The position numbers and the translations under genes are program-made. A model generated the notes under the pieces. It was not told the origin of the DNA. It saw only the letters and a list, made by a program, of their open reading frames with translations, and searched no databases. From assembly GCF_008000775.2 (NCBI RefSeq), contig NZ_CP042905.2:3600001-3632000 (forward strand): DNA of 32,000 nt, given 5' to 3'. Below, piece after piece: positions 5,327-28,096 of this stretch. Position 1 is the stretch's first letter, and each line of letters begins with the position of its first letter. Source of the DNA: Promethearchaeum syntrophicum (GTDB lineage: Archaea > Asgardarchaeota > Lokiarchaeia > Sigyniarchaeales > Promethearchaeaceae).

Positions 5327-6454
5327 AAATCACAATAAAAAGGATATGATCTAACTTTTTGGAATCACCTGAGATCGAAAGTTCCAGTGATACTTCTGAA
5401 AACCATAGAAAACATTTAAGTAGTCAATTTTTATAGGATATTTATGAAAGAATTAAAAAAAACAAAAATCATTGGGTTTTTTGGTTATATTTTCTCTTTC
5501 TTATTTCATTCTCATCCTGTTGTGATTGTTGCTAACGCTGGTTTGCCGAAAAAGAAAGAAAAAAAGGATGCAAGTGAAAAGAAATAAATTTCAATTGTTG
5601 AAAATAACTCTAATTAATTAATTCTTCTATTTCTAAGCGATTTTCACGTTTCTCTTACAAAAATTTTATTATATATAAAAATCGGGAGAATTGAAAGAAC
5701 CCAAAATAAAGAGAATTAGTATCAGCAGTACTGCTAAAGTGAAGAATATTGATGAGATTCTTTGTTTAAATTTATTTTTTTTTACTTCATTTTTAAATAA
5801 ATGAATTCTCATTTTGTACATGTATATTAGAAACAAGAATTAAAAAACTTCTCTAAGCAATGCTATCTTTTCTCCGATTTAGAAGTCATGTATGAGAGTG
5901 AATGAAATTGAAAGAGTGATGATGAATTGAACCTCAATCCCTCCTTCATTTTTTGATCTTCATCTGAATCTATCAATGAAATAAATAAGAGTAAAAATGG
6001 GATCGAGTAGAACCATAATTTTGAGATAAAAATACCCAGCAGAATGAATGTTAGGATGAAAAAAATTAACAAGTAATTGAATACCTTAGCATACGCTTTT
6101 CTATTCCCATAGTATTACCATGGTAATTCACCTTTTAAAATGCATTTAGAGTCAATAATGTCGTCACCGCTTAAAATGGTTATCTATCCCAAGTTAAAAT
6201 TCTTCTCCTTTGTTCTATAGTGAGTTCGGATACTTTTTCGTTGAGAAGCATCAATCAATTAAAAATAAAAAGATAATTAGGAAACAATTATCAATATTAT
6301 ATGAAAAAAAAAACATGAAGTGACAAATTAATCTTCGTTATTCACGCCTCCACGTTTATTAATTCCTCTTCAGTGAGATATATCGGAAAAATGTTTTCAA
6401 GTCTTTTTTAAGAAAATAACCGAGATGATTTTGTCACCTCATGAAAAAAAAAAA

Positions 6455-6542
6455 TTCCTCATCAATATCTATTGGGGTTTTTGCCAATTTTATGAAATTT
6501 ATCTTCAATGCCCAAGCTTTAATCGCACTTTTACTTTTTCTG
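6455..6542 (-). pseudogene. Displaced, frameshifted copy of the 3' end of the Hsp20 gene
   Basis: About 85% identical to 7403..7491. It translates (with one frameshift) as KVRLKLG/ALKINFIKLAKTPIDIDEEF, versus the Hsp20 C-terminus KARLKLGVLKVNFTKLPKTTIDIDEE. Confidence 0.7.
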
Positions 6543-7013
6543 AAACAATAATTTCATTTTTTCCTTAAAATTAGTCTCTAATGGATTAATAATCGGAATA
6601 GATCCCAAATCATATTTAAAATCACTATCCGTAGTTATAAATGCATCTACATTCGATTGAATTGCAGTCGTCCCATGAATAGCATCGGCAGCATATAAAT
6701 TATATGTGAAAATTAACTCCCTTGCAGCTATTATTGATTTAAATACTACCGGTTTTAATTGGATTTTATCATCTTGAACCATTTGACCGATTTCCACTAA
6801 GAAGAAGTCAAGAACTAAATTGGCGTCTTTTTCTTTTATTATTCCTAGATTAACTTGCTTCTTTAATGCTCGAAACATTTCCACTACAGCCCATTCGCAA
6901 GTTACTCCTTGAATTTCTGTAGATAAATTTTCAAACAACCAATCTATTATGGAACCTTTTTCAACGGGGCAGTAAGCATGATAAAAAATGTTTGTATCTA
7001 AATAAAATTGCAT
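6531..7013 (-). CDS. vapC: PIN-domain ribonuclease toxin VapC
   Basis: 160 aa. N-terminal YLDTNIF acidic motif and distal ITTDSDF. It lies immediately downstream of, and overlaps by 1 nt, an RHH antitoxin gene. Confidence 0.85.
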   Translation of the reverse strand: MQFYLDTNIFYHAYCPVEKGSIIDWLFENLSTEIQGVTCEWAVVEMFRALKKQVNLGIIKEKDANLVLDFFLVEIGQMVQDDKIQLKPVVFKSIIAARELIFTYNLYAADAIHGTTAIQSNVDAFITTDSDFKYDLGSIPIINPLETNFKEKMKLLFQKK

Positions 7014-7249
7014 TATTCTTCCTCTCTAACAGATCTAATTGCTTGAGTTCCTGTTTGAAAATCTTTTTTCTGTTGCGTTTTTAGGTAATTTCTTAAATCT
7101 ACTTTTGATTTGAACCCAAGTTTATTTAGAATGAAAGAATATATCCCTCCACGAATCGCCTCGCTGCGATTCTTTATATAGCCCTTTTTAATAAGTTGAT
7201 CAAGCCATTCAACCAGCTCATCATCTACTGAAACGGAAATATTTGTCAT
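7013..7249 (-). CDS. vapB: Ribbon-helix-helix (CopG/MetJ-type) antitoxin VapB
   Basis: 78 aa. ISVSVDDELVEWLDQLIKKGYIKNRSEAIRGGI matches the RHH beta-strand/helix/helix pattern. Operonic with vapC. Confidence 0.8.
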   Translation of the reverse strand: MTNISVSVDDELVEWLDQLIKKGYIKNRSEAIRGGIYSFILNKLGFKSKVDLRNYLKTQQKKDFQTGTQAIRSVREEE

Positions 7250-7399
7250 AAAATCACTTTTAATACTTAATTAATATTAAGAAAATTATATTATTAAAAT
7301 AGTACTATTTTCTATTTCATGAATTATGATGATGATTGGTGCATAGAAATGAATGAAAATGGTTGAAAAAATAACTTGCTTAAATATAAAAGAAAAAAA

Positions 7400-7846
7400 T
7401 TATTCCTCATCAATATCTATTGTCGTTTTTGGCAATTTTGTGAAATTTACCTTCAAGACCCCCAGCTTTAATCGCGCTTTGACTTTCTCTGGATCGATCG
7501 CGGATTGGACTGCAATTTTCACACTTACTGGTCGATTTAAGATCCAACTTGCTTGCTTTTCAAGCTTAATTGGTTGATCTACGCCCCCTTCAATTGGTTG
7601 TTGTTCTTTCTTTGCTTCAATTAAAATTTCACTTCCTCTAACTGAAACTTCAATGTCTTTTACTTCTAAACCTGGTAATGGCATCGTCACTATGTATTCA
7701 GTTTTTGTCTCTTCTAAATCATAAGGCATATAATTCTGCCATTTACCCATCATCATATGCATAAAGTTGGGATCGAATTTTGGACCACACGCCCCCCCAG
7801 CAAAATGCATTCCTCCCCGATGAGGATTATAGTTGCTCTTTGTCAT
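7400..7846 (-). CDS. Small heat-shock protein, Hsp20/alpha-crystallin family
   Basis: 148 aa. Alpha-crystallin domain core PYDLEETKTEYIVTMPLPGLEVKDIEVSVRGSEILIEAK and C-terminal ARLKLGVLKVNF strand. Confidence 0.85.
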   Translation of the reverse strand: MTKSNYNPHRGGMHFAGGACGPKFDPNFMHMMMGKWQNYMPYDLEETKTEYIVTMPLPGLEVKDIEVSVRGSEILIEAKKEQQPIEGGVDQPIKLEKQASWILNRPVSVKIAVQSAIDPEKVKARLKLGVLKVNFTKLPKTTIDIDEE

Positions 7847-7914
7847 TTATTGGTTTCTCCATCTATTTTCATTTATTAATATTTTTTTTTTTTTATTTTT
7901 ATATGGGTATTGTT

Positions 7915-8136
7915 TCAATAAAAAAATGGGTATCTCTTCTTCTTTTGCTCCAGATGTTCTTGTTTGTGGTCAAAATATTTAAAATCTATTTGATCTGCGA
8001 TGCCTGAACGCCCTTCTACTTGTTTTTCCAGTGATGACTCTTTTGGATTTTGAATGTTCATCACCAATAAATCTTCGGTCATCACCAATGGTTGTTTATA
8101 GACAGGTGTCCACGCAGGACTTTGTATTTGCGACAT
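7915..8136 (-). CDS. Hypothetical small protein (73 aa) upstream of hsp20
   Basis: ATG-initiated ORF co-directional with hsp20 and preceded by SD-like GGAG at a 5-nt spacing. No recognisable domain. Confidence 0.35.
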   Translation of the reverse strand: MSQIQSPAWTPVYKQPLVMTEDLLVMNIQNPKESSLEKQVEGRSGIADQIDFKYFDHKQEHLEQKKKRYPFFY

Positions 8137-8141
8137 AATTA

Positions 8142-8175
8142 CTCCTATTTTCTCCTTTTTACTCCTTTTTACTCC
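8142..8175 (-). promoter_or_regulatory. Four SD-like GGAG motifs at exact 10-nt spacing in the 5' leader of the 73-aa ORF
   Basis: Plus-strand CTCC at 8142, 8152, 8162 and 8172. The minus strand reads GGAGtaaaaaGGAGtaaaaaGGAGaaaataGGAGtaattATG. Confidence 0.4.
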
Positions 8176-8258
8176 GTTTTTTATGGTTTGTTTAGGTTAG
8201 TTCTGGTAGGTTGTTTTTATTTCTTGTTTATCTTAGTTATTTCACTTAATCTTCACTT

Positions 8259-8292
8259 AAAAAAAAAAGAAATCTGCAATTTCGTGCAGATT
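8259..8292 (-). terminator. Hairpin plus T10 terminator directly after the PadR-family gene
   Basis: Perfect 8-bp inverted repeat AATCTGCA (8271-8278) / TGCAGATT (8285-8292) with a 6-nt loop. On the minus strand it is followed by a 10-T run (8259-8268). Confidence 0.6.
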
Positions 8293-8905
8293 ATTCTTCC
8301 TCAATTTTAATTTTTGTCCAATTCCTCTTTTCATTTTCACACTCCTTAGTCTTGGTGGCGATTAACTCAATCTGTTTATCAAGATTTTCCATTTGCTTAT
8401 TAAACCGCTCAGTTAAATTGATTTTTTCTTGTTCTAAACGTTTCTTCATTCTTTCAAGATTTTCCATTGATTGGGAAATGTTCGAAAAACTACAGAATTC
8501 ATTGGAAGAAAGAAAATCATCCAGAAACCCATAGTCTGAGAAATTCCAAAATTCAGAAAAATCTAATTGCTGTAAAAAAGGTAGGGGTTTAATGAGCGTT
8601 TTAAAGAGCTTCGGTAGAAATTCGATGCTATCGTGAATAATTTTTGGACTATTTTCGGTCAATCGTTGTTTTCCTTGGTCGGTTATAGTATATATTTTGG
8701 AATTCTCAGAGATATCACCGGATTCATTAAGTTTCTTCAGTTTTGGGTAGAGCGTCCCAGGTGAAATGTTTGATATTGGGAAATACACTTTAAATTTGTT
8801 CACTAATGCATACCCAGTTAATCCTTCTGGATTTTGTTCTAAGATTGAAAGTATAATTAAGTCCAATGCTTTTCGTGGGATCATTATTTTCCTTTCCTTT
8901 TTCAT
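8291..8905 (-). CDS. PadR-family winged-helix transcriptional regulator with C-terminal coiled-coil extension
   Basis: N-terminal LDLIILSILEQNPEGLTGYALVNKF...ISPGTLYPKLKKLNESGDI fits the PadR wHTH pattern. The C-terminal half is coiled-coil-like (MENLERMKKRLEQEKINLTERFNKQMENLDKQIE). Confidence 0.75.
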   Translation of the reverse strand: MKKERKIMIPRKALDLIILSILEQNPEGLTGYALVNKFKVYFPISNISPGTLYPKLKKLNESGDISENSKIYTITDQGKQRLTENSPKIIHDSIEFLPKLFKTLIKPLPFLQQLDFSEFWNFSDYGFLDDFLSSNEFCSFSNISQSMENLERMKKRLEQEKINLTERFNKQMENLDKQIELIATKTKECENEKRNWTKIKIEEE

Positions 8906-8958
8906 GGGTTTTTTTGAGATTTTGGGAATTTGAAAATCGTAAATTAGGAAATTTAGTA

Positions 8959-8970
8959 TTCGAATTCGAA
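8959..8970. promoter_or_regulatory. Perfect 12-bp palindrome TTCGAATTCGAA upstream of the PadR-family gene (candidate operator)
   Basis: Lies 54 nt upstream of the PadR start. A related inverted repeat TTCGAataaTCGAA is at 9031-9044. Confidence 0.4.
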
Positions 8971-9186
8971 TCTCTAATAATTTTTAAAACCTAAAATAAT
9001 TATGACAGCGCCATTATTTAAATGTTCGGTTTCGAATAATCGAATTGAAAATGAATTTATTAAATGAAAGAAGAGAAGCCAAAAATCCAAATTCGTTTAA
9101 AATTTTAGAGATTTTTGATCTTGGGATAAATTTTCTATCTTTATGGATTGGAATTAAAAAAAATTAAATAAAAGTATTAGTATTGA

Positions 9187-9219
9187 CTAATCATCTTCAA
9201 TTATAATCTTAGTCCAATT
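9187..9219 (-). pseudogene. Possible remnant of a PadR-gene 3' end
   Basis: The minus strand reads NWTKIIIEDD-stop, versus the PadR C-terminus NWTKIKIEEE-stop (8291-8323). About 80% nt identity over only 33 nt, so this is weak. Confidence 0.3.
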
Positions 9220-9310
9220 ATAGTCAATTTTTACGGGGAAAATTGCATAGTTGAAATGAGAAATACTTACGATTCTCCGCTAAATTTCATGACGATATTA
9301 GGGCGTGTAA

Positions 9311-10609
9311 TCAATGGGGTTTTTTTTTTAATTTCAATTTTATAACTTCTTTTAATAGAGGAATGGCTAAAATGGGCCGGAAGAAGTGTCGTTTAGGGCG
9401 TTCACCGCACATAATTTGAGCCCACATAGCCATGAACTTATCTCCGCGCTTAATACTAGCTGCAGCAAAGGCATCTATAAATATCGGATGTCGGGCTAAA
9501 AATTTTGCCATTTTCAGGGACCATTTATGGTCATTCCCAAATTTTTCCATGCACATTTGCTGATAACGGGTTAAAAATTCTTCGCTAAGATCGTTTTGTC
9601 GAAATCCTTCTGCGATCACTTCTGCAGCAATAGTGCCTGCATCCATGGCATATGCGATACCTCCACCTGTGAGGGGATCAGCGTGGCCTGCGGCATCCCC
9701 TAGTACGATGAAATGGTCTGCATAGGTTCGTTTTTCCATTCCGTACCGGATCGGGGCTGCTTTCATGCTTTCTATATTGGCATCCGGTCCCAGAGCATCT
9801 TTTATCGGTTGATAGTTATCCAAGATTTCATGGTGCATGCGACTCAAGTCTTTTTTCGTGCAGGAACCTCCAGGGAGGATATAACAACAATAGCTGACTG
9901 AATCGTCGGCTTCTCGGAAAAGTGACACATACCCAGGGACTAATTCGGAAGGATAATAAACTACTCCATCTTGTTGGAACCTGTGGGTGCCGGCTTCGAT
10001 ATAAACTGTAGAGCAAACCGTGTTCTTCTTATTTTCTCCCAAATTTTTAACGATTCCTATCGATTGGGCAAGGGCGGATGTCGAACCATCAGCCGCAATG
10101 AGCATCTTCGCTTTGAAAGGTTCATTCTTTTGCCCCTTTGAGTTGATTATCCAATGATTTTGGAGGGTTGAGAATTTTACTTTACCTACATTATATTCTT
10201 CGACCAAAGTGGCTCCTGTTTTTTGGGCTAATCTGACAAGTTTCTCATCCAATATCGTCCTTTTCACGGACAGAGCCAAGGACCCTTTGGATGATTTGGC
10301 TGATGCTCCAAAATATGTGATCCCTCGTGGACTGACCAACCCCCCTTTATCTGCCCACCTACCATGCCCTTCATCGAGAATTTCTTGCAACAAACCCATT
10401 TTCTCAAGGTGGGTTTGGATGGTTTTAAACATAGCATCACCACAAATCTTGCGTCGGGGGAATTTATCCTTTTCTAAGAGTAGGATTTTCTTCCCTTGCT
10501 TTGCCAAATGGTAAGCGCTGGTGGATCCTCCTGGTCCCGCCCCAACAATGCACACATCATAAACAATTTGATTTTTCTCCGACATAAAATCGCCAATTAA
10601 TGATTTCAA
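9311..10609 (-). CDS. FAD-dependent geranylgeranyl reductase family protein (archaeal lipid / isoprenoid saturation)
   Basis: 432 aa. N-terminal dinucleotide fold YDVCIVGAGPGGSTSAYHLAKQGKKILLLEKDKFPRRKICGDA, then LIAADGSTSALA and VLGDAAGHADPLTGGGI motifs typical of GGR/ChlP-like enzymes. Confidence 0.8.
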   Translation of the reverse strand: MKSLIGDFMSEKNQIVYDVCIVGAGPGGSTSAYHLAKQGKKILLLEKDKFPRRKICGDAMFKTIQTHLEKMGLLQEILDEGHGRWADKGGLVSPRGITYFGASAKSSKGSLALSVKRTILDEKLVRLAQKTGATLVEEYNVGKVKFSTLQNHWIINSKGQKNEPFKAKMLIAADGSTSALAQSIGIVKNLGENKKNTVCSTVYIEAGTHRFQQDGVVYYPSELVPGYVSLFREADDSVSYCCYILPGGSCTKKDLSRMHHEILDNYQPIKDALGPDANIESMKAAPIRYGMEKRTYADHFIVLGDAAGHADPLTGGGIAYAMDAGTIAAEVIAEGFRQNDLSEEFLTRYQQMCMEKFGNDHKWSLKMAKFLARHPIFIDAFAAASIKRGDKFMAMWAQIMCGERPKRHFFRPILAIPLLKEVIKLKLKKKPH

Positions 10610-10929
10610 TTTTCAGAAATAAAAACCATTCGATCTAGATATATTGCCGTATCTTGACTGTTTTTGCCAAAAACGGGAAAATATTGTTGAAATTTGAGTT
10701 TATTATTTCTAGATTTTACCTTAACAAAGCAAATTTAGAAGAGACATTCATGTGGATTGTTTTAAATAGACTGAAATGCCTATAAGTCGGAGGGTAGTAG
10801 GTTTAGTTGATACAAAACAATTATTATTTAGTTTAGAAAACAAAACTTCTAATAGAAATTCTACAATTTTTCATCTTGGTTCAGAGAAAATAAAAGTTAT
10901 TATTTGAATTCTTTTTATCCAAAATATAT

Positions 10930-12243
10930 ATGAAGACGACAAATAAGAATGGGATTTGTTATATGAAAAAGGCGCAAAAATGTAGGATTATGCTCATAAT
11001 CTTTTCGCTTTTATGCGTTACTCTTACTTCACAAGTTAAAGTAAGTTCCGCTCTTTCAGAGAAGAATAAAAGACAATCTTTTGATGATGGGGCGTGGTTA
11101 GTCAAACATAAATCTTCTGAACTTATCCAGATCACCGATTTGGTTGTTGATTCTACCAATATTTATGGCTTTGGTACTATCCATGTTGATGACTCTGTAG
11201 AAAAGTCTGATTTACTGCTTATAAATTGGGGACCCGATGGAAATTTAAAATGGTCCAAAGTGATTGAATTTCGCGATCAACAAGCGAGTGCTGGAAAAAT
11301 ATGGTCAGATGGTGCAGCATTATATATAGTCGCGAGGTTTGGAAATAGTGGAGGTCCTTATTCAAGTTGGATGGCTAAATGGGATTTTAATGGAACACAA
11401 ATTTGGAATCGGGTTGGTCGAGGAATCGGGAGCGAGGGTGTATTGAATATATTCGAATCTAATGAAAAAATAATCAAAATTTCTGTTGGTGCTGATAGTA
11501 ATTATTTAAATATTGAAACTATCACAAAAGAAGGAGAGTTCAATTCTATTATCTATATTGATTTAGGGGATTCCCAAGATTTCCGCGATAGTTGGGTAAA
11601 TGGGACGGATTTTTTTCTCACAGGGGATTTAGGTAGTAATGCAACTATACATCATTATTCTCCATCTGGTTCATTGATTGACTCCTTTATCTTACCATTC
11701 TTTGAGAGCAGTATGCGATTTATCGGATCGGACACCAAACTATTGGTCGCCACTGGATCAGATACACAATTCGATTTTTATACGTTAAACCATTCAGGAG
11801 ACATTCTATCGCATGAAAATATAATCATGAATAATGGTGAAACTCCTGATAAATGTTGGCCAGATGCATTTTGGTCGAATGGGAGTTCTTTTTTCCTCTC
11901 CGGTAGTGGTTATGATCCAGAATATTCCCGATTACCGACCCTCATACAATTCTCGCCAGATATGATCATAGAAAAACAAATCAAGATTGGAAATACCATG
12001 GGATACGGGATCACATCGATGACGGGATACAATAACAGTATTTTCATGACCTGGTTTTCTGCGGATCAGTCACTTAATCTGATGAAAATTCCCCTTAATT
12101 CTGAGGTTCTTATGTATGAAATCAAATTTCCCGATTTAAGGGTTACATTACTGATTTCAGGGATTACCCTGGCCGGAATTACAATTCTAATTATAACCCT
12201 TAAACCAATCCTTCAAAAAAAAGGAAAAAATGTTCCAACTTGA
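10930..12243 (+). CDS. Surface-anchored beta-propeller repeat protein (SBBP-like), signal peptide plus C-terminal TM anchor
   Basis: Hydrophobic N-terminus (RIMLIIFSLLCVTLTSQVKVSSA). Repeated D..L.kw...G...W units (LINWGPDGNLKWSK, MAKWDFNGTQIWNR, HHYSPSGSLIDSF, YTLNHSGDILSHE). C-terminal TM LLISGITLAGITILIITL followed by basic residues. An alternative start is ATG 10963. Confidence 0.55.
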   Translation: MKTTNKNGICYMKKAQKCRIMLIIFSLLCVTLTSQVKVSSALSEKNKRQSFDDGAWLVKHKSSELIQITDLVVDSTNIYGFGTIHVDDSVEKSDLLLINWGPDGNLKWSKVIEFRDQQASAGKIWSDGAALYIVARFGNSGGPYSSWMAKWDFNGTQIWNRVGRGIGSEGVLNIFESNEKIIKISVGADSNYLNIETITKEGEFNSIIYIDLGDSQDFRDSWVNGTDFFLTGDLGSNATIHHYSPSGSLIDSFILPFFESSMRFIGSDTKLLVATGSDTQFDFYTLNHSGDILSHENIIMNNGETPDKCWPDAFWSNGSSFFLSGSGYDPEYSRLPTLIQFSPDMIIEKQIKIGNTMGYGITSMTGYNNSIFMTWFSADQSLNLMKIPLNSEVLMYEIKFPDLRVTLLISGITLAGITILIITLKPILQKKGKNVPT

Positions 12244-12301
12244 TAATAGTATGTAAAAGGAAAACAAAAAATATTTTAATCTGACATGTAAAAATATATT
12301 T

Positions 12302-12739
12302 ATGGATGAATCCTCGTTGGAATTTAACCGGCTTTTTTCAATAGAAGAAATCGAAAGTATGAACGCGATTTTTCACGAATTAATAGGAATTATAAGAAAA
12401 ATTATTAAACAAGATTTTAAGCAAAAGATCAGATCTCGCCGCCATTTTAAACCGATCACGATCATCACGAAAGAGAATGAAATTGTAATTCATCAAAAAA
12501 AAAAAATTATCCAATTTTCGGATTTAATTGCTCCATTATATGATCCAAAAGATTGGGTCTCTTTCAATCAAGTGGCTTCAGTCATGCTTTTGGAGATTGT
12601 TGGGGGGGTCGCCATTTGGCAATTGGGTGTGGAATGGGGAGAAAAATTCCTTGAAGAAAATGTGGTTAAAAACTTAAACAAAAAATATCATGATTTGCTT
12701 GTTTTAGGCCAAAAAAGAGTGTTTAGTATCCGATTTTGA
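12302..12739 (+). CDS. Hypothetical protein (145 aa)
   Basis: ATG-to-TGA ORF with no recognised domain. Its last ~55 codons are duplicated as a decayed copy at 14991..15182. Confidence 0.5.
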   Translation: MDESSLEFNRLFSIEEIESMNAIFHELIGIIRKIIKQDFKQKIRSRRHFKPITIITKENEIVIHQKKKIIQFSDLIAPLYDPKDWVSFNQVASVMLLEIVGGVAIWQLGVEWGEKFLEENVVKNLNKKYHDLLVLGQKRVFSIRF

Positions 12740-13267
12740 AGATTTTCAAGAATAAATATTATCTTTTTCATAGTTCCAATTGTTACCCAAACTCTAATTT
12801 CCCACTTTTATCTTAGACTATATAATACTCCGATATTATTATCTCCCCGAGAATAAAAATCAAATAATTTTTTTTTAAAAAACAGCTTTGGATACCTCCT
12901 CCACACTCGCATCAATTATAATTGAGAATCAAATGAGATATTGAGTTTTTGGAAAGATGAAGGCTTTTAATTCAAAGGATTTTTTGTAAAAAAAAAATCA
13001 GAAAGAAATGGAGATTTGAAAGAATTTTTATAGATTTGGATAACCTATTTTCCATCTGTTATATTAATCAAGGAAATCACCATCATGATTTAATGTTTCA
13101 AAGAATATCCAAAATTTAGCTATGATAATTAATTCCAAGTCAGTAATATCGCCTTGAAGATTTTGAGTTCGAAGAGGTTGACTTGGCGAGTTAAACGGTG
13201 AAAATTATCCACCAGAGTTAAAGATGTCAAGGGGGATGAAATATTTAAATACAGTCGTGTCAAAATA

Positions 13268-14785
13268 ATGACTAACCAATTATTCAATAATTGGTTAAGT
13301 AAAAAGAGTGAAAAAAAAATGTCGCGTAAAATTCGTATTTTAATAAAGGTCAACATAATCTTTATGATCTTGCTAATTCCGAGTATTGGAATTATTAATC
13401 TAGCGTCTGCAGCGCAAATTTCCTCCATAATTGCATATTCTCCTGATGGGAAGGGATATATTGAAGAACTGAGTTCAGGAAAACAATTAATTCATATGGA
13501 AGGGAGCCCTTATGAAATGGGCTATCAACAGGGCTATCTAGATCCTATCAGTGTTGAGCGTTTAGCTTCAGTTGATTGGTTTAAAAACGTAGTTCTAAAT
13601 TTACTAGAAGCTGAGGATTGGATTCTACTGTTTATTATGAAAAAAGTTCTTAATTATAATCGGTTGATGAGTGAAGTTGGGAGTGTTGTAGATGAACCAA
13701 CTATAGCTGCGGTTGCGGCTCAAAGTACTGATAATCTTGATATGTTGTTAGATAAGTTATTTATTTTATGCCATGAATTAGTAGCATATAATAGTATTTA
13801 TGTACCTCAAGAATTTCTGGATGAAATCCAAGGTGTGGCAGATGGAGCAACAGATGCAGGTCATCCTGTATCCTATGAAGAGGTTCTTCTTTTAAATATG
13901 GGAATGGATGCATTGCTTGCTTTGGCATACCCCGTCGTAGAACCTTATCTTTTCTGGATGGATCTCTTTAGTTTTCTCTCGTGTAGCGGATATGTAGCTC
14001 AAGGTGCAGCCACAACAGATGGACACACAATTATGGGTCGTCATTGGCAATTTACATCGTATGTGACCCATGAAGAAATGATTTTAATGGAATATTGCCC
14101 AGATAGCGGAAATCAATTTCTTAGTACTTCTTGCGCGGGTTTTGTTGGGGTCACCTCAGCAATGAACGATCAAGGCTTGGGAATTGGTAATGACATGGTT
14201 CCTGCACAAGATTGTAATCCTGCTAATTTTGGAATGGGAACACTTTTAACTGCCCGATATGTTATGCAATATACAAACCAATTGAGTGAAGCTATTAATT
14301 TTATTACAACCCATACTCGTGGATGTTCCTGGATATATGGAATTGGTGATGGACGAAATGGTGAAACTGGAGGTGTAGCTTTAGAAACCTCCACCAACTA
14401 TTACCGGGTGCGGGATATGACATATACTCGCCCTTGGTGGGCAATTTTCTCCTTTAATACAATTGAAAAGAAAAGTGATTTGGTTACATACACCAATCAT
14501 TATATCTATTATAGAATGAATGATTTAGCCGATTCAACCGCAATTGACGATTCTGTCGATCGTTACACTTGGCTCACAAATCTTGCATTGGATATGTACG
14601 GAACATTAGATTTAGATTCTGGGAGTGTACTGATTGATTATCTTCATCCCCCAAATTATGGTTATTATGGATCGGATCTTACCCAACCTGTTGGATGTGC
14701 AGTCACGTGTTGGGATTTAACAACATTGGAAGCCAAGGCTTTATTCGGATATTATAATGACGATTGGGTATATCGCTCCCTTTAA
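13268..14785 (+). CDS. Secreted Ntn-hydrolase, peptidase C45 / acyl-CoA:6-APA acyltransferase-like
   Basis: GSPYEMGYQQGYL near the N-terminus. Candidate autoprocessing nucleophile context FLSCSGYVAQGAATTDGHTIMGRHWQF. The internal ATG 13319 gives a classic signal peptide MSRKIRILIKVNIIFMILLIPSIGIINLASA-AQ and is the more likely start. Confidence 0.55.
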   Translation: MTNQLFNNWLSKKSEKKMSRKIRILIKVNIIFMILLIPSIGIINLASAAQISSIIAYSPDGKGYIEELSSGKQLIHMEGSPYEMGYQQGYLDPISVERLASVDWFKNVVLNLLEAEDWILLFIMKKVLNYNRLMSEVGSVVDEPTIAAVAAQSTDNLDMLLDKLFILCHELVAYNSIYVPQEFLDEIQGVADGATDAGHPVSYEEVLLLNMGMDALLALAYPVVEPYLFWMDLFSFLSCSGYVAQGAATTDGHTIMGRHWQFTSYVTHEEMILMEYCPDSGNQFLSTSCAGFVGVTSAMNDQGLGIGNDMVPAQDCNPANFGMGTLLTARYVMQYTNQLSEAINFITTHTRGCSWIYGIGDGRNGETGGVALETSTNYYRVRDMTYTRPWWAIFSFNTIEKKSDLVTYTNHYIYYRMNDLADSTAIDDSVDRYTWLTNLALDMYGTLDLDSGSVLIDYLHPPNYGYYGSDLTQPVGCAVTCWDLTTLEAKALFGYYNDDWVYRSL

Positions 14786-14990
14786 GAGTGAAGAAAATAT
14801 GCTGGAGAGATTCCAAGGATTCCATCAGAAACTTCCTCTTTTTTTTTATTTTTGAATTTTTGAATTTTCTCTTTTCTCTCAGTTGGGGAAATTAAATACC
14901 GAAGAATTTCTTTAGAGTTAATATCACCAGTTGGATTAGTCTTGAAGATTTTAATTTGTTAAAAACATTAATAGTGAATTTTTCTACCTA

Positions 14991-15134
14991 ATGAGAAGTG
15001 TATATATGCTTTTTGAGAATGCAAAAACAGTCGTAATTTGGCAATTGGGTGTTTTATGGGGAGTAAAATTTATTGAAGACGAAATCGTTAAAGGGTTAAA
15101 CAAAAAATATCAAGATATGATTGTTTTAGGATAA
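14991..15134 (+). pseudogene. Truncated paralogous copy of the C-terminus of the 12302..12739 gene
   Basis: 47-codon ORF MRSVYMLFENAKTVVIWQLGVLWGVKFIEDEIVKGLNKKYQDMIVLG-stop, versus ...VAIWQLGVEWGEKFLEENVVKNLNKKYHDLLVLGQKRVFSIRF. A TAA replaces the CAA (Gln) codon. After it the frame still reads KRVFCIQF-stop. Confidence 0.6.
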
Positions 15135-15213
15135 AAAAGGGTGTTCTGTATCCAATTTTAAGATTATCAAAATTTTCAAGATTTAAAAAATATCGATGAA
15201 TAATCATTTTTTT

Positions 15214-16131
15214 TCATTTCATTATGTTGGATTCAAGAATAGAAAAATATAAATCAATAATTCCTTTCCATTCATTTTCTGTTAATTCCCGTACTTCTAA
15301 ACCATTCTTCGGTACATAGGTAACGATGATCATCGATGGCTTATATTGTACATAAGGTTTGAATTCTAACTCGATATCCACTTCTTTATTATATTTCTTC
15401 TTGGACAGGTGTCCATTTTTTATCCATGTATCTAATTCCAGTCCAACTCCTCCAAAAGAAGTTGCACAAATGAGTTTTATTTCCATAGCAGGGTATTTTG
15501 CGGGATTAACTAGGATATTGGTAGGTCCCATTTGAATCATGCTTTCCCTTTCGGTTATTGTTATCTCTATTCTAATTTTTTCGGGATCATAGTATTTCTT
15601 TATTAATTCTGCAGTAAGGATCGTTTGTTCGATGTTATGAATAAATATGGTTCCAATTTTTCGTTTTTCTGGCTCTTTTTCATAGAAAGTAATATATCCG
15701 ATCCCTATTTCCCCTAGACAATAAAGGATGGAAATGAGAATGATATGGATTTGAAAAACATTATTAATCACTAATACTAATGGAACTACCAATATCGCAA
15801 TTCCTCCAAGAAAAATTAGCACCAGATTGAAAATTATTTTAAATTTTTTCGGTTTTTCATGATATTCAATAGATGGATATTGATTATACAAATCAATAAA
15901 TTCCTCTAGAGTAATTATCAGTTTGCGCTGATGAGGACTGAAGATTTTTATTGGAATGCCCAAACTCATTCCCATCGCAACTAAAATACCAAAATTCATG
16001 AATCCACCAAAATATTCCCCAAAGAAATACAACAGTATCGGACCAATTGTTATGATAATCAATCCACTTATCACAATTTGAATGGTCTTTTGCTTTCCAT
16101 TCCATGGTTGAAACTTGTTTTCAATTGACAT
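15214..16131 (-). CDS. Hypothetical membrane protein (4 TM segments plus ~150-aa C-terminal soluble domain)
   Basis: 305-aa ATG ORF with clear hydrophobic segments (IQIVISGLIIITIGPILLYFF, FNLVLIFLGGIAILVVPLVLVI and others). No recognised domain. Confidence 0.55.
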   Translation of the reverse strand: MSIENKFQPWNGKQKTIQIVISGLIIITIGPILLYFFGEYFGGFMNFGILVAMGMSLGIPIKIFSPHQRKLIITLEEFIDLYNQYPSIEYHEKPKKFKIIFNLVLIFLGGIAILVVPLVLVINNVFQIHIILISILYCLGEIGIGYITFYEKEPEKRKIGTIFIHNIEQTILTAELIKKYYDPEKIRIEITITERESMIQMGPTNILVNPAKYPAMEIKLICATSFGGVGLELDTWIKNGHLSKKKYNKEVDIELEFKPYVQYKPSMIIVTYVPKNGLEVRELTENEWKGIIDLYFSILESNIMK

Positions 16132-16705
16132 ACTACAATTTCATTTACGATAGATATATAAAATGTGTGATTTCAAAGTAGGAAATTCTTGGATTAAAAA
16201 GAAACCCTAATTTTTCTATACTTAATCAAAACCTTGTAATAAAACATTTTAAATCTAATATTTCAAGGTTTAAGGAGTGAGAATTCCCTCTCCGACATAA
16301 TTCCATTTTATATTAAAGATTAAATGGAAAAATATAATGCACTCATCTACTTTGTTGATTTCACTACAAAGTATTAACAAAACCCTCCTAAAGAAGAGAA
16401 AGCTGTCAATTTTATCCATATCTGAAATGTATGAATTGATTTTCCAATAATTATTAATTAAGTAAAAATGACAAACGTAAAGCATTTGGTGAAGCTATAA
16501 TTTTGAAAAATTCCGATATAGAAAACATCTTTTAATATGGTTTTGAAAGCTGTAATGATTGACCCCATACCTAAGATTTGCTTCAATCTGTTATCTGAAA
16601 CACGAGGAGATGGTCCTAGGGGCAAAATTGCCCAGAGAGCGATGAAAAATGCAGAATTTGTTCGTTCATAATTCTCTTATTTAACTCTATTGGAATAATC
16701 TTTAA

Positions 16706-17254
16706 CTATTTAACATGGTTGAAAGCACTTTTAATGCTGTTCAGGTTAAAAATCGATGTATCAAATATCTTGATGGACTTCTTATGCCCTTGGATGAAGG
16801 ATTCAACCTTGTCAAGGAACATTTGTTTGAGGTTTTTTTTGGTCGGATCAAAATTTGGATCGGTTTTATTAAACAGGATATTGATTTCTGCATCAGGGCT
16901 ATTTCTTACAATTATTGGAAGCACTGTCATGAAGTACATGATGGAATTAAATAACCGATAATAATCTTGAACATCGATAACATAAAATGCAAATGAGATA
17001 GAGCGAAGATAGGTTTCAGGATCAGCTAAGTATTCATTACGATAGACTTCTTGCCCTCCAAAATCCCAAACTACAAGATTTCTCTCGGAGATGACACTTC
17101 TCTCAATATTCTTGGTAGGCGACATATCAGGAGGGGTAAGTTGGTTAAATCTAATTTTATCCGTGAGAACATCAACAATAGTGGTTTTTCCCGCATTTTC
17201 CAAGCCCATAAGAATAACTTTTATTAAATCTTCTCGATTCATTTCGTTGCTCAT
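16706..17254 (-). CDS. Arf-family-like small GTPase
   Basis: G1 GLENAGKTT, G2-region SPTKNIE, G3 WDFGGQ (the Arf/G-alpha type WDxGGQ), G4 NKTD. 182 aa. Confidence 0.85.
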   Translation of the reverse strand: MSNEMNREDLIKVILMGLENAGKTTIVDVLTDKIRFNQLTPPDMSPTKNIERSVISERNLVVWDFGGQEVYRNEYLADPETYLRSISFAFYVIDVQDYYRLFNSIMYFMTVLPIIVRNSPDAEINILFNKTDPNFDPTKKNLKQMFLDKVESFIQGHKKSIKIFDTSIFNLNSIKSAFNHVK

Positions 17255-17378
17255 TAAACATCAAGTTGTATTTATCTTATATAAAAAAGATTGCATTGAT
17301 AAAAACTGGTCTAAAAATTATTAATAATAGAGTCTTTACTTTTTGTATTTAGGACAGACGAAAGTCCGATGAAAAAAA

Positions 17379-17807
17379 ATGAAGAACACACATTGCTCAT
17401 ACGATTCATCACGTGCTGGTGAATCAGAACGCTTAAGTTTAGCTCGAAAAGAAATGAAAGACGCCTGGATTGGATTAATCATTGTTAGTATAGTTATGGC
17501 AGCATTATTCCATTCAGCCTGGTGGTCATTGATCCCGCGGGTCGTATTATTTATTCATGCAATTGATAAAACAGCAAAATACTCCCGAATTAAAGATGCA
17601 GATAGAAGATTGAAGGCACAAGAATCAAGGCAAAGACAATACGGAACTCCTACTGAAACTTCGTATTACGGGAAACCGGAACAACCTACAATTATTACCT
17701 CACCTTCTAAGGCAACCTCCGGCTTTTGCCCATTATGTGGACAAAAACATGAAAGAGACGCAGTCTTTTGTTCGGCTTGCGGAACTGATTTGAGACAAGG
17801 GGCTTAA
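17379..17807 (+). CDS. Membrane protein with C-terminal zinc-ribbon
   Basis: Two hydrophobic segments (AWIGLIIVSIVMAALF, WWSLIPRVVLFIHAI) and C-terminal CPLCG-x11-CSACG. Confidence 0.55.
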   Translation: MKNTHCSYDSSRAGESERLSLARKEMKDAWIGLIIVSIVMAALFHSAWWSLIPRVVLFIHAIDKTAKYSRIKDADRRLKAQESRQRQYGTPTETSYYGKPEQPTIITSPSKATSGFCPLCGQKHERDAVFCSACGTDLRQGA

Positions 17808-18013
17808 TTTCTTTTTTAATTTTTTCTTACTTACCTATCTTATAGCGCATTTTATAAGAACACTATAGATTTCGGTTCAGTTAGTCACGCAAATTAGTAA
17901 ATTTAGATTAATAGCTTCTATTGATTTGATTGTATTAGTTTTCTAAGCATTTTTTTTTTAATGAATTTTAATAAAACCAAAATTTTTTCCCATTTCCGAT
18001 ATAATCATCTTAT

Positions 18014-18511
18014 ATGAAATTCGAGGAATTTACACCCGAACAAAAAAGAATGTATGATCTTAGACATTTCCCCGTTCGCCCACATGTAGGAGTTGGGGGA
18101 GTAATTGTTTGGAATAACCAAATTTTACTTATTAAACGAAAATATAATCCATCTGCAGGAAAATGGGCAATACCTGGAGGTCACTTAAAATTAGGAGAGC
18201 CAACACCAACAGGTGCACTTCGAGAATGTGAAGAAGAAACAGGATTAAATCTTCAAATTGTTAAATTGGCAGGCGTAATTGATCGAATCGATCAAGAAAA
18301 TAGCGGAAAATATGAATATCATTATGTTCTGGTTGATTATTTCATGAAAGTAATCGGAGATTTTACAGTCAAAAATCCTCCAATACCTAAAGCACAATCT
18401 GATGTAGAAGAAGCAATATTTATTACCTTTAAAGACCTTTCTCAATATAACTTAACAAGAACGACAAAAGAACTTTTAATTCAACTTAACATAATGGATT
18501 TAAATGGGTAG
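18014..18511 (+). CDS. NUDIX hydrolase
   Basis: Complete Nudix box GHLKLGEPTPTGALRECEEETGL (Gx5Ex7REUxEExGU). Confidence 0.85.
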   Translation: MKFEEFTPEQKRMYDLRHFPVRPHVGVGGVIVWNNQILLIKRKYNPSAGKWAIPGGHLKLGEPTPTGALRECEEETGLNLQIVKLAGVIDRIDQENSGKYEYHYVLVDYFMKVIGDFTVKNPPIPKAQSDVEEAIFITFKDLSQYNLTRTTKELLIQLNIMDLNG

Positions 18512-18528
18512 TCTTTAAATATTATATA

Positions 18529-18915
18529 ATGGAATTAACACCGTTGCATCACCAAAAATTAGAACGATATATTGATCAACTTCAAGATGATCCGAATATT
18601 TTGGCAATGGTAGTATATGGAAGTGCAACTAAATCTAATAAATATAATGATATTGATATTGCATTAATTGCATTTCCTGAAAAAATTCCATACATTGATG
18701 AACTTAAATATATGTTAGGAACTAATGAAGAATTTGATATTCATTTTCTTCATAAATTGCCGGTTTACATTCAAAAAGATGCTATTAAAGGGAAACTTAA
18801 ATTCTATAAAGATTATCAAATAATTTTTAACGTTTTTATTAATATCATAAGAGAATGGGATGATTTTCATAAAAGGTATGGTTTATTTCTGGAAGTGATA
18901 CGAGATGGCTTATGA
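18529..18915 (+). CDS. mntA: Minimal nucleotidyltransferase antitoxin (MntA-type)
   Basis: VVYGSATKSNKYNDIDIAL (GS-x9-11-DxD polymerase-beta-type NTase motif). Overlaps the downstream HEPN gene by 11 nt. Confidence 0.8.
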   Translation: MELTPLHHQKLERYIDQLQDDPNILAMVVYGSATKSNKYNDIDIALIAFPEKIPYIDELKYMLGTNEEFDIHFLHKLPVYIQKDAIKGKLKFYKDYQIIFNVFINIIREWDDFHKRYGLFLEVIRDGL

Positions 18916-19303
18916 GAGAATAATAAATCGAATTGCATTTATTAAAACAAATTTATCTTTGCTAAAAAAATTGATTCCTTCAAATATTGAGTTGTATATT
19001 AATAATCAGACTATTCAACTGGCAATTGAACGTCTATTACAGATTATAATTGAAGCAATAATGGATATATGTATTCAACTTGTAGGATACTTAAATTTAG
19101 GAATTCCGAAGTCAGAAACTAATATATTAGACCTTCTTGAAAAAAAAATACCTTCCGTTAATAAACTTCGGGAATTAAAAAAATTTAGAAACGTACTCGT
19201 GCACCAATATGTTAGAATTGAACCTCAAAAGATATTTGCCCATGCTTCTAAATTTCCAGATGATTTGAAAATAATTTTGCATGAAATCAATAAACTAATT
19301 TAG
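18905..19303 (+). CDS. hepT: HEPN/DUF86 RNase toxin (HepT-type)
   Basis: 132 aa. Rx4H motif in FRNVLVHQY near the C-terminus. Paired with the upstream MNT gene. Confidence 0.8.
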   Translation: MAYERIINRIAFIKTNLSLLKKLIPSNIELYINNQTIQLAIERLLQIIIEAIMDICIQLVGYLNLGIPKSETNILDLLEKKIPSVNKLRELKKFRNVLVHQYVRIEPQKIFAHASKFPDDLKIILHEINKLI

Positions 19304-19375
19304 AGTTGTCAATCTTCTCTCTCACAGTATTAAATTTCTTAAATTTTTATTAATTTTGAATAAATTTCGCAATTA

Positions 19376-19436
19376 AACTTTACAAGAACTTTAAAAGAAC
19401 TTCTAATTCAATTAAATATAATGCAACTTATTTAAG
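19376..19436 (+). pseudogene. Displaced copy of the NUDIX gene 3' end
   Basis: Reads NFTRTLKELLIQLNIMQLI-stop, versus the NUDIX C-terminus NLTRTTKELLIQLNIMDLNG-stop (18449..18511). Confidence 0.6.
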
Positions 19437-27795: not shown

Positions 27796-28045
27796 AACTG
27801 AGAATAATTGAAAGATCCCATAATTCTTTGGGATTTTCTTTACTACTTTCTTCCAGAACTCACAATATTTCTTTTTCGAAATTCATGTTCACTAATTTCA
27901 CCTTAGTGGAAATAAAATCTATCAAAATCCGAACGATTTTAAATCCCATAAAATCCACGAGAATACACATATTCTTATTCATAAATGAGAGTATATCCTT
28001 GAATCAACCATATATTATCAAAATATAAGCCAAAAGTGAAAAAAT

Positions 28046-28096
28046 AACCGATATATTCTCGGTTAGTGGTCATCTGAACCTAAATGTTGATGACCA
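28046..28096 (-). terminator. Conserved double hairpin plus T-run downstream of membrane-protein paralogue A
   Basis: AACCGA (28046-51) / TCGGTT (28059-64) and TGGTCATC (28067-74) / GATGACCA (28089-96). On the minus strand these are followed by TTATTTTTTCACTTTT. Confidence 0.45.

Follow-up and report, generated by a model that had tools for sequence, protein, structure and literature searches.

Old accessory-gene insertions at gene 3′ ends in Promethearchaeum, flanked by duplicated host gene ends

Integrative elements that target gene 3′ ends, such as the tRNA-targeting elements of archaea and bacteria and phage 21 and e14 at icd, supply a replacement end for the gene they enter. The loci described here share with them the layout in which an intact gene is followed by foreign DNA and a partial 3′ copy as a direct repeat, but those elements have an integrase, an identical crossover core, one fixed boundary and an element-borne end diverged from the outset, none of which is seen here. 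Integron gene cassettes are similar in being small, promoter-poor, often toxin-antitoxin cassettes that are stacked downstream of a fixed point, each followed by a repeat (compare the L002 hsp20 array below); however, the present loci have no IntI-type integrase, and their repeat is the coding end of the neighboring gene, different at each locus, with no common attC-type site.

Bacterial genomes show the same footprint, termed insertion with long target duplication (Nobusato et al., 2000; Furuta, Abe and Kobayashi, 2010, PMC2853133), in which duplications of 46–423 bp flank restriction-modification genes without mobility genes. The screen of PMC2853133 kept no archaeal case, and its authors suspected DNA cutting by the cargo itself. 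The “undescribed mode” of accessory-gene insertion suggested by a first-pass annotation of our DNA was therefore too strong a claim; what is new is its occurrence in Asgard archaea and with cargo of this kind. In both settings a related genome lacks a small gene block of addictive or selfish type, the direct repeats that flank the block (tens to hundreds of base pairs) occur as a single copy at the empty site, and transposase, integrase and inverted repeats are missing; some bacterial cases also overlap a gene 3′ end. The differences are that the cargo here consists of RNase-type toxin-antitoxin pairs, a peptidase, a methyltransferase and small membrane proteins instead of restriction-modification genes, that the repeats are old (78–92% identical, most bacterial cases being nearly identical), and that the same slots have been struck repeatedly, with stacking.

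Homology-facilitated illegitimate recombination is the explanation given for displaced 3′ ends at the effector loci of Rhs, CDI and type VI secretion systems (Kirchberger et al., 2017, PMC5361080, citing Jackson et al., 2009 and natural-transformation studies of Streptococcus, Acinetobacter and Pseudomonas). There, as we propose for the present sites, incoming DNA is anchored in a conserved upstream gene and its far end is joined illegitimately, the former 3′ part is shifted downstream without being lost, and repetition builds arrays with the newest unit adjoining the conserved gene. The tips displaced there, however, are distinct toxin domains that come with immunity genes and are retained by selection, whereas the end displaced here simply duplicates the new one, has no function and is decaying, behind ordinary housekeeping-type genes.

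We analyzed a 32-kb window (the whole stretch of DNA under study; positions are window coordinates) of the 4.3-Mb genome of Promethearchaeum syntrophicum, together with approximately 150 kb from about eight genomes, comprising loci picked because they hold these sites; L-numbers denote these related Promethearchaeum contigs. Accessory genes were inserted at gene 3′ ends at several loci in several Promethearchaeum genomes, and a variable slot lies behind several conserved genes. In a self-BLAST of the whole window, the strongest short repeats are three pairs, each consisting of a gene 3′ end and an orphan copy 0.93–2.4 kb downstream, at about the places given in the first-pass annotation; the only other strong direct repeats in the 32 kb are one 1.9-kb tandem paralog pair and its attached gene-end fragment. 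The cargos (0.8–2.3 kb, two of them toxin-antitoxin pairs) are flanked on both sides by 60–156 bp spanning the host gene 3′ end, with approximate repeat lengths over the events of 60, 82, 106, 120, and 156 bp. Pfam confirmed the gene identities already proposed (HSP20, RHH and PIN, NUDIX, Polbeta and HepT, C45-family peptidase). On balance, we read these scars as old insertions with long target duplication that arose by illegitimate recombination, with no dedicated mobile element.

The NUDIX site comprises the following features:
18014–18511, plus strand: NUDIX gene, 165 aa, the host gene (Pfam NUDIX)
18415–18496, plus strand: upstream copy (R1), 82 bp, wholly within the ORF (alignment)
18497–19341, plus strand: cargo, 845 bp (Pfam; comparison with relatives)
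18529–18915, plus strand: mntA-type nucleotidyltransferase (Pfam Polbeta)
18905–19303, plus strand: hepT (Pfam HepT-like)
19342–19435, plus strand: orphan NUDIX end (R2, 19342–19423, with in-frame stop) plus native tail and stop (19424–19435), colinear with L019 and L020
19552–19833, plus strand: native downstream neighbor, 93 aa (97 aa in relatives), directly after NUDIX in L019 and L020

The two copies are 78% identical (spacing 927, E = 3e-12, window self-BLAST). The cargo is common to the window and L017/L018 (colinear, 86–90%) and missing from L019 and L020, with which the orphan and its flank are colinear through the next gene, including the native tail (…QNN and stop) that in the window reads CAA CTT ATT TAA, with the stop at 19433–19435. 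The insertion point lies inside the NUDIX ORF, 9 nt ahead of the old stop; the last four codons of the present gene (DLNG) and its stop are supplied by the left end of the cargo, and orthologs at uninterrupted sites end …IMQNN. The earlier statement that the copy includes the stop codon is right only in part: the hsp20 orphan has lost its stop and the NUDIX duplication ends 9 nt short of the native one. The orphans of NUDIX and of the 145-aa ORF each carry an in-frame stop. At the TrkA site L002 carries an insert that the window and L003 lack, and its orphan and flank are colinear with the empty allele. Since empty sites exist (L019 and L020 for NUDIX, the window and L003 for TrkA, L023 for hsp20), the loci are insertions, as had been supposed.

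The features of the hsp20 site are:
7400–7846, minus strand: hsp20, 148 aa, the intact host gene (Pfam HSP20)
7393–7498, minus strand: upstream copy (R1), the last ~98 nt of hsp20, its stop and the start of a T-run (repeat alignment)
6550–7392, minus strand: cargo, 843 bp, vapB and vapC (Pfam RHH_1, PIN)
7013–7249, minus strand: vapB, antitoxin (Pfam RHH_1)
6531–7013, minus strand: vapC, toxin (Pfam PIN)
6445–6549, minus strand: orphan hsp20 end (R2), with a 1-nt deletion, the stop lost and 11 derived changes (R1 has 2)
5863–6072, minus strand: native downstream neighbor of hsp20, homolog of the relatives’ 82/84-aa gene (DNA matches to L023 and L002)

The hsp20 product is 100% identical to a P. 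syntrophicum protein and has a C-terminus that is near-invariant in orthologs of 79–92% identity; R1 is no less identical to orthologs than the rest of the gene, with no break between body and R1. The pair is 83–86% identical (spacing 948, E = 9e-26, window self-BLAST). The flank downstream of the orphan is colinear with the L023 interval from hsp20 to the 84-aa gene, and window 5859–6252 matches L023 3997–4389 and L002 12094–12433 at 79–80%. The vapBC cassette occurs at other positions of the hsp20 slot in L003, L023, and L004/L021 (85–88% identical, vapC end intact); in the window, vapC is cut ~7 nt before its native stop at the junction, losing its last ~2–3 native codons, and the frame closes within the orphan repeat. 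L004/L021 have a donor-like allele, in which vapBC follows hsp20 immediately and no orphan is present, and the left end of the window’s cargo is the sequence natively found after hsp20 in L004/L021 and ahead of vapBC in L023. The order is reversed between the window (hsp20, vapBC, orphan, 84-aa gene) and L023 (hsp20, 84-aa gene, vapBC). L002 has three hsp20-end copies, of which the nearer is 92% and the one farther from hsp20 82% identical, i.e., more decayed; these copies precede paralogous cargo genes, and the contrast between repeats that are 92% alike and paralogs that are ~70% alike fits a stacking of alleles from different strains. Independent hsp20 events end at the same 3′ repeat boundary, the T-run, which could reflect a site preference besides a mere point of allele divergence.

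At the third site the features are:
12302–12739, plus strand: 145-aa ORF (DSAG12_03850), the host gene (open reading frame)
12608–12763, plus strand: upstream copy (R1), the last 129 nt, stop and ~24 nt downstream (self-BLAST, alignment)
12764–15029, strand unassigned: composite cargo, 2266 bp (tblastn, Pfam AAT, DNA matches)
12814–13077 and 14887–14958, minus strand: pseudogene remnants (tblastn of the L023 1–648 product against the window)
13268–14785, plus strand: C45-type peptidase gene, acyl-CoA:6-APA acyltransferase family (Pfam AAT)
15030–15186, plus strand: orphan end of the 145-aa ORF (R2), with in-frame stop (alignment)

This host gene is lineage-restricted and fast evolving (three homologs found, 68–100% identity), and a Pfam search assigned it to no family. 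The copies are 81% identical (spacing 2422, E = 3e-31, window self-BLAST). The 2.4-kb cargo annotated earlier is present but composite, a minus-strand pseudogene split by the C45 gene: DNA matches that lie 400 bp apart in L023 and L003 lie 2015 bp apart in the window. L005 has an unrelated 487-aa gene behind the 145-aa ORF at the same site, with a shorter orphan copy (~60 bp).

A fifth gene-end repeat, missed in the first-pass annotation, involves an LRR gene:
27701–29932, plus strand: tandem duplication of LRR gene end and 517-aa membrane-protein gene (self-BLAST)

The LRR gene end at 27701–27775 recurs at 29858–29932 (81%). The duplicated unit, 27701–29864, consists of this end and the 517-aa membrane-protein gene and repeats from 29858, its body matching at 86% (27999–29864 versus 29962–31824). 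This case is a plain tandem duplication, leaving an LRR-end orphan at 29858–29932.

The orphan, downstream copy is the original gene end, still in its native surroundings. The window and L017 have the entire NUDIX insert in common (86%), yet their orphans have 10 and 9 unique states and not one private state in common; the copies thus had no detectable private differences at the split of the two lineages and were near-identical when made, and their present 78–86% identity reflects age. Polarized differences (orphan:upstream) were 11:2, 17:5, 11:4, 11:3, and 5:1 in five comparisons, a total of 55 versus 15, the 11:4 being NUDIX; a sixth, the 145-aa ORF with its single outgroup, gave 12:12. Most polarized differences are thus orphan decay, except at the 145-aa ORF. 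The 80–85% identity had been taken as the mark of a diverged end brought in by an element; this is not supported, as the downstream copy is the original and the differences mostly arose in it. All events are old, with no junction in a fresh state.

Comparison of the ends revealed no terminal inverted repeats and no common cargo ends or core across sites, and the sites have no tRNA or Rfam match. No recombinase, integrase or transposase was found among Pfam matches in the window or in the relatives’ gene tables, bearing out the earlier remark that none is visible; an enzyme encoded elsewhere in the 4.3-Mb genome may act in trans. Junctions disregard gene boundaries, as seen in the clipped vapC and in the methyltransferase cargo of L002, which ends ~21 nt from its start codon. 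In relatives the same slots carry different cargo with different boundaries, sometimes stacked.

The route was probably an illegitimate, one-sided homologous recombination of strains with differing sequence downstream of a conserved gene, and of the three options offered originally (cassettes mobilized in trans, decayed larger elements, recombination with DNA of a related strain) the last fits best. The donor would be DNA from a related strain with other genes behind the same conserved gene. Homologous recombination would occur in or upstream of that gene, and the far end of the donor would be joined illegitimately, perhaps at a microhomology of a few bases, 60–150 bp upstream of the resident gene end, the net exchange being unequal, one-sided and homology-facilitated. 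Candidate microhomologies, weak ones in DNA of 30% GC, are TTGAT (vapC/hsp20) and AATTTTT (NUDIX orphan). On this reading the upstream copy remains joined to the gene body and maintains its function, with the final NUDIX codons replaced by cargo, while the downstream copy, the orphaned original end on its original downstream DNA, decays neutrally. Between identical partners the same process would yield an ordinary tandem duplication, as at 27701–31824. Survival would be limited to insertions near a stop codon whose repeats are too short to be deleted efficiently, which would explain the 3′-end bias and the repeat size. We favor this route because of the donor-like L004/L021 allele, the reversed order in the window and L023, the stacking in L002, and the LRR tandem duplication in the same window. 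A donor allele (cargo without orphan) was not found at the NUDIX, 145-aa ORF or TrkA sites in the relatives examined. The NUDIX insertion, inside an ORF with a cargo-supplied tail, requires an earlier event under the recombination model.

An unlikely alternative, though the best placed of those considered, is a true target-site duplication of unrelated incoming DNA, in one step, by two nicks 60–150 nt apart or by a replication template switch away and back upstream. This reading was given for the bacterial restriction-modification genes (PMC2853133). It derives both junctions from a single event and agrees with the identity of the copies at origin; it also accommodates the insertion within the NUDIX ORF with the cargo giving a new tail, and the fairly narrow band of repeat lengths (~60–156 bp). 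However, the match of the hsp20 cargo’s left end to the same locus in L004/L021 and L023 is expected of a same-locus donor and would otherwise be coincidence. In addition, we know of no enzyme that makes such staggered cuts, and, in contrast to restriction enzymes, none of the cargo gene products found at these loci has a predicted DNA-cutting activity.

In-place tandem duplication of a gene end and its downstream gene, with one cargo copy then lost or replaced, is improbable as a general account. Exactly such a duplication lies in the window (27701–29864, again from 29858), and the L002 hsp20-end copies precede paralogous genes, but those repeats are 92% alike against ~70% for the paralogs, the opposite of what shared age predicts. 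The NUDIX empty alleles lack any cargo and the orphan’s 3′ edge runs straight into native tail and flank, so that a second cargo copy would have to have been deleted to the base; TrkA speaks against it likewise, and the empty alleles at these two sites contradict decayed full-length paralogs as the source of the remnants.

Site-specific cassettes with their own surrogate 3′ end, mobilized in trans or decayed from integrase-bearing elements (the lead of the first-pass annotation), are very improbable: although toxin-antitoxin pairs make up two of the cargos, independent hsp20 events have one repeat boundary in common and the layout resembles that of tRNA- or icd-targeting elements, no integrase was found in the window or any relative’s locus, no core is shared between the sites (exact identity in any one pair runs to ~21 nt at most), the upstream copy had not diverged when it arose, boundaries vary between independent 145-aa ORF events, the cargo end cuts into vapC, and queries with HepT, VapC and the C45 peptidase found no close relative in 2.9 million viral or mobile-element contigs.

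A weak fourth case had been proposed at a PadR gene:
8289–8323, minus strand: PadR 3′ end, with a copy at 9185–9219 (29/35 nt)

The repeat is not significant within the window alone, and the layout differs in that the orphan lies upstream of the intact gene; it nevertheless recurs in relatives as matches of 51–87 bp, with the same upstream copy in L002, L004, L021, and L022.

All three direct-repeat pairs that the first-pass annotation had placed at gene 3' ends were recovered by a repeat search, by pairwise alignment and by BLAST of the whole window against itself. In each pair one copy (R1) forms the 3' terminus of an intact gene; its partner (R2, the orphan) lies 0.93-2.4 kb downstream on the same strand, the enclosed genes being identified by Pfam as vapBC, a C45-type peptidase gene and mntA-hepT, respectively:

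Direct-repeat pairs at gene 3' ends in the window
hsp20: R1 7393-7498, R2 6445-6549, minus strand, 83-86% identity, E 9e-26
145-aa ORF (locus tag DSAG12_03850): R1 12608-12763, R2 15030-15186, 81% identity, E 3e-31
NUDIX gene: R1 18415-18496, R2 19342-19423, 78% identity, E 3e-12

The orphans are dead, that of hsp20 through a 1-nt deletion and loss of the stop, and those of the NUDIX gene and the 145-aa ORF through an in-frame stop in each. The only other strong direct repeats found by self-BLAST in the window were a 1.9-kb tandem paralogue pair and the attached orphan end of a leucine-rich repeat (LRR) gene. The vapBC and mntA-hepT cargos (6550-7392 and 18497-19341) are almost equal in length (843 vs. 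845 bp) and unrelated in sequence, the near-equal length probably being a coincidence.

Empty alleles, which the first-pass annotation had named as a check on its reading, were found for the NUDIX, TrkA and hsp20 sites, and the filled and empty alleles together bear out its proposal that insertions at gene 3' ends recur across loci and genomes of this lineage. The comparison covered ~150 kb from about eight genomes, chosen because the sites of interest were present; the contigs of related Promethearchaeum (L002-L005 and L017-L023) were obtained via the hsp20, NUDIX and 145-aa proteins. The NUDIX site is empty in L019 and L020, where a NUDIX protein of 164 aa, ending ...IMQNN*, is followed by 118 bp and then a 97-aa gene, and it is filled in the window, L017 and L018, which have the order NUDIX-mntA-hepT-orphan-97-aa gene in common and are colinear at 86-90% identity. 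In a multiple alignment the orphan and all downstream sequence align with the empty alleles, with the native NUDIX tail kept after the orphan (CAA CTT ATT TAA in the window, ...IIQNN* in L017), and the gene-attached copy continues into the cargo, which supplies a new tail, DLNG*. It follows that 845 bp were inserted within the NUDIX ORF, 9 nt before the old stop, and that 82 bp were duplicated.

The TrkA end of L002 exists as two 120-bp copies that enclose a gene for a 371-aa methyltransferase; this site is empty in the window and L003. At the hsp20 site, L023 has an 84-aa gene directly after hsp20, and the interval from the orphan to the 84-aa gene in the window is colinear with it. No empty allele of the 145-aa ORF was present among the relatives examined; in L005 this ORF is followed by an unrelated 487-aa gene and a shorter orphan (~60 bp) whose boundary is not that of the window, and it is an independent event. 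The 487-aa product was considered as an orthologue of the C45 peptidase and rejected, there being no similarity by BLASTP. A 308-aa gene occupies the NUDIX slot of L004, with no detectable orphan. The duplications measure 82, 106, 120 and 156 bp (~60 bp in L005) and exist as one copy only in the empty alleles, and the inserts are 0.84-2.27 kb long. These are insertions that duplicated 60-156 bp of their target, with arbitrary junctions and no machinery that we could find, and they recur.

The junctions pay no heed to gene boundaries. The window vapC, relative to those of L003, L004 and L023, has lost its last ~7 nt and ends within the hsp20 orphan in another frame, and the methyltransferase cargo of L002 has an end ~21 nt from its start codon. 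All copies of the hsp20 end share one 3' edge, located at the T-run that follows the stop codon, and vary in their 5' edges; the window and L005 have different edges at the 145-aa ORF, and no core sequence common to the sites was found. The 2.27-kb C45 cargo is composite, consisting of a minus-strand pseudogene, homologous to L023 1-648, whose middle has been replaced by the peptidase gene. As the pseudogene is split by this gene, the peptidase represents a second, nested insertion without a detectable repeat. The pseudogene remnants lie at 12814-13077 and 14887-14958 of the window (minus strand), and the L003 counterpart is also frameshifted.

The suggestion that an integrating element brings its own diverged version of the gene end did not hold. 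When the R1/R2 differences were polarised with orthologues as outgroups, the changes fell mostly in R2:

Derived differences in the orphan (R2) and gene-attached (R1) copies
hsp20, window: 11 in R2, 2 in R1
hsp20, L002: 5 in R2, 1 in R1
NUDIX, window: 11 in R2, 4 in R1
NUDIX, L017: 11 in R2, 3 in R1
TrkA, L002: 17 in R2, 5 in R1
145-aa ORF, window: 12 in R2, 12 in R1 (one outgroup only)

The 145-aa ORF, the one exception, evolves fast (68-77% between orthologues). The amino-acid changes of the hsp20 orphan fall on sites that do not vary among 19 orthologues. A single NUDIX insertion was inherited by both the window and L017, and over 84 aligned columns their orphans have 0 shared states that are absent from all five functional copies, 10 and 9 states, respectively, that are unique, and one further column that differs in both. 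Since there are no shared private states, the NUDIX orphan was indistinguishable from a functional end when the window and L017 split. An identity break between the hsp20 body and R1, which would be a sign of a diverged donor, was tested for and none was found. To judge from these alignments, the copies are shown to have been identical at origin, and the repeats read as decayed duplications rather than surrogate ends. All the events are old, the cargos included; copies of vapBC from different lineages are 85-88% identical, a value close to that of the repeats.

Nor is this an undescribed mode of insertion, as had been suggested, the footprint being that of the "insertion with long target duplication" of bacteria (PMC2853133). 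Such insertions are known for the restriction-modification genes of bacteria, Helicobacter, Haemophilus and Neisseria among them, with repeats of 46-423 bp, no mobility genes and, in some cases, a position over gene 3' ends; no archaeal case was kept in that survey, whose authors suspected the DNA-cutting activity of the cargo (PMC2853133). As in those cases, the inserts described here are absent from a relative whose flanks align on both sides, are flanked by direct repeats of >30 bp that are single at the empty site, and are <20 kb without transposase, integrase or other mobile element. They differ in that the cargo lacks restriction and modification genes, by which the published screens had selected their cases, and comprises VapBC, MntA-HepT and the C45 peptidase with its pseudogene; the L002 cargo is a solitary methyltransferase and small membrane proteins. 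We conclude that this is the same kind of rearrangement with another class of cargo. Because the cargo has no predicted DNA-cutting activity, the footprint, on predicted functions, cannot depend on restriction enzymes, and we would argue that it is a general product of host recombination. No earlier report of the footprint in an Asgard archaeon, or with toxin-antitoxin or other non-restriction cargo, was found in the literature searched, and within that literature what is new here is its occurrence in an Asgard archaeon with non-restriction cargo, the kind of rearrangement itself being known.

The slots are recombination hot spots, and the region behind hsp20 has a different content in each lineage:

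Genes behind hsp20
Window: vapBC, orphan, 84-aa gene
L023: 84-aa gene, vapBC
L003: methyltransferase, vapBC
L004/L021: decayed vapBC directly behind hsp20, vapC end intact, no orphan; ParE pair next
L022: nothing before the HAD gene
L002: three hsp20-end copies, each ahead of a paralogous small membrane-protein gene

In L002 the hsp20-end copy nearest the gene is 92% identical to the gene end and a farther copy 82%; the cargo paralogues are far less similar, with ~70% identity in patches. The array (L002 10481-13160) encodes small membrane proteins of 171, 175 and 157 aa, each after an hsp20-end copy, and in the second and third units the similarity extends ~50 bp past the repeat (11248-11373 vs. 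12456-12583, 75%). Addiction modules turn over at the hsp20 locus of L004/L021: at L004 2483-3539 (L021 alike) only fragments of vapBC and 130 bp from the 5' end of TrkA are left, and the slot is taken up by a toxin-antitoxin pair of the ParE type. In L022 (9503-9585) the HAD hydrolase gene follows hsp20 within ~80 bp, compared with a distance of 5.4 kb in the window; the whole vapBC-TrkA-methyltransferase-MFS block has thus either been lost from L022 or never existed there. A metagenome scan with the hsp20 alignment returned nine mostly short contigs and no further orphan copies. No significant cryptic orphan was found at four further places, namely downstream of vapC and upstream of the 97-aa gene in L004, upstream of vapB in L003, and downstream of the 84-aa gene in the window; a hsp20-end-like stretch of ~25 nt before vapB in L023 is marginal, its score being reached by 1 of 300 shuffles.

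We infer that the insertions arose by unequal exchange, with homology at one junction and illegitimate joining at the other, and that the partner was DNA of a related strain whose copy of the slot would have held different genes. We favor this route because the left flank of vapBC is the sequence natively found after hsp20 in L004/L021, where a donor-like hsp20-vapBC allele is present; because the window and L023 carry two cargos in opposite order; because the L002 repeats have diverged from one another far less than the cargo paralogues behind them; and because the same window holds the outcome of such an exchange with an identical partner, a plain tandem duplication. The proposed route matches a published one: at type VI secretion, Rhs and CDI loci, displaced 3' ends and arrays of orphans have been explained by homology-facilitated illegitimate recombination (PMC5361080). 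A homologous junction with a closely related donor leaves no trace, and no donor allele was found for NUDIX, TrkA or the 145-aa ORF among the relatives examined. Survival bias would explain both the 3'-end position and the ~100-bp size of the repeats, as insertions elsewhere would destroy the gene and long repeats would delete the insert.

The main rival is a true target duplication, produced in one step by a staggered break or a template switch, which is a simpler fit to the intragenic NUDIX junction; at NUDIX, TrkA and the 145-aa ORF the data fit it and one-sided exchange alike. We consider it improbable that Promethearchaeia have a dedicated or semi-dedicated means of adding genes behind conserved genes, as a recombinase-free analogue of the integron. 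Such a system would insert small cassettes at transcription-terminator-proximal sites either by an activity acting in trans or by a break that is linked to replication and staggered by ~60-150 nt, a length covered by the size range of archaeal Okazaki fragments, and it would yield chronological arrays with the newest unit beside the gene (cf. the three-copy hsp20 array of L002). If true, there would be a recombinase-free integron analogue in the closest prokaryotic relatives of eukaryotes.

A site-specific integrative element carrying a surrogate end was rejected: the observation that no recombinase is visible was confirmed, as there is no integrase or transposase among the Pfam matches of the window or in or beside the inserts of eight related loci, and, unlike in such elements, the gene-end copy was not diverged at integration. 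With no tRNA gene or Rfam family in the window, no RNA-gene target is involved, and scans of viral and mobile-element contigs revealed no close relatives of HepT, VapC or the C45 peptidase. An integron array (that of L002 included) was rejected since each repeat is a locus-specific coding end with nothing shared between loci and there is no integrase. A transposon or MITE was rejected since seven cargos (window, L002, L005) have no terminal inverted repeats or shared left or right ends beyond shuffled controls and the duplications are of variable length (60-156 bp). Plain tandem duplication (R-X-R-X) at the three sites was dismissed, as the cargo is single and the orphan continues straight into native flank, that layout occurring only at the LRR/517-aa unit (27701-31824).

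The filled and empty alleles thus document gain of accessory genes, toxin-antitoxin modules among them, without visible mobile-element machinery in one cultured Asgard archaeon and its relatives. Asgard genomes are unusually large, a growth that has been put down to horizontal transfer and gene duplication (PMC13247210). If such scars prove common across the genome, a single process could give rise to both additive one-sided recombination and tandem duplication, and it could contribute to that growth. Orphan gene ends are also useful markers that date insertions and polarise changes of gene order, and they can mislead gene callers, the present C-termini of vapC and NUDIX being due to junctions.

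Several other features of the window were noted. The copy of the PadR 3' end that had been put forward as a fourth case is present (29/35 nt), and is not significant on its own. All lineages examined have a copy of this end upstream of PadR, at a distance of 0.3-0.4 kb and whichever gene lies upstream, and in L002 and L022 the copy is the upstream gene's own 3' end; compared with the other sites the layout is reversed, and the upstream copy is ancient or functional.

PadR 3'-end copies
Window: 8289-8323 vs. 9185-9219
L002: 8619-8753 vs. 9604-9654
L004: 4357-4418 vs. 5237-5295
L022: 7746-7830 vs. 8641-8723

A geranylgeranyl-reductase-like FAD oxidoreductase gene (9311-10609) has 43-46% GC, compared with ~31% for the window, and is not at this position in L002, L003, L004 or L023, in which PadR is preceded by LRR or other genes. 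The oxidoreductase gene was probably acquired horizontally in a separate event, and a scan of GTDB genomes with its product gave no match. The last ~85 nt of a DUF6506 gene persist as an orphan 3' end (16596-16682) adjoining an Arf-family small GTPase gene (16706-17254), and the DUF6506 gene is intact in L004, L005, L017-type relatives and L019. The tandem duplication at 27701-31824 has a unit of ~2.16 kb, formed by the 3' end of an LRR gene and a gene for a 517-aa multi-pass membrane protein; its paralogues are 86% identical, the LRR end (27701-27775) and its orphan (29858-29932) 81%, and the spacer between LRR-end copy and paralogue block is 194 bp shorter in the second unit. A 141-aa zinc-ribbon protein and the 517-aa membrane protein are similar over their N-terminal ~20 codons (26929-26989 vs. 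29602-29662, 75% over 61 nt), and a second zinc-ribbon paralogue (142 aa, 17379-17807) lies upstream of NUDIX.
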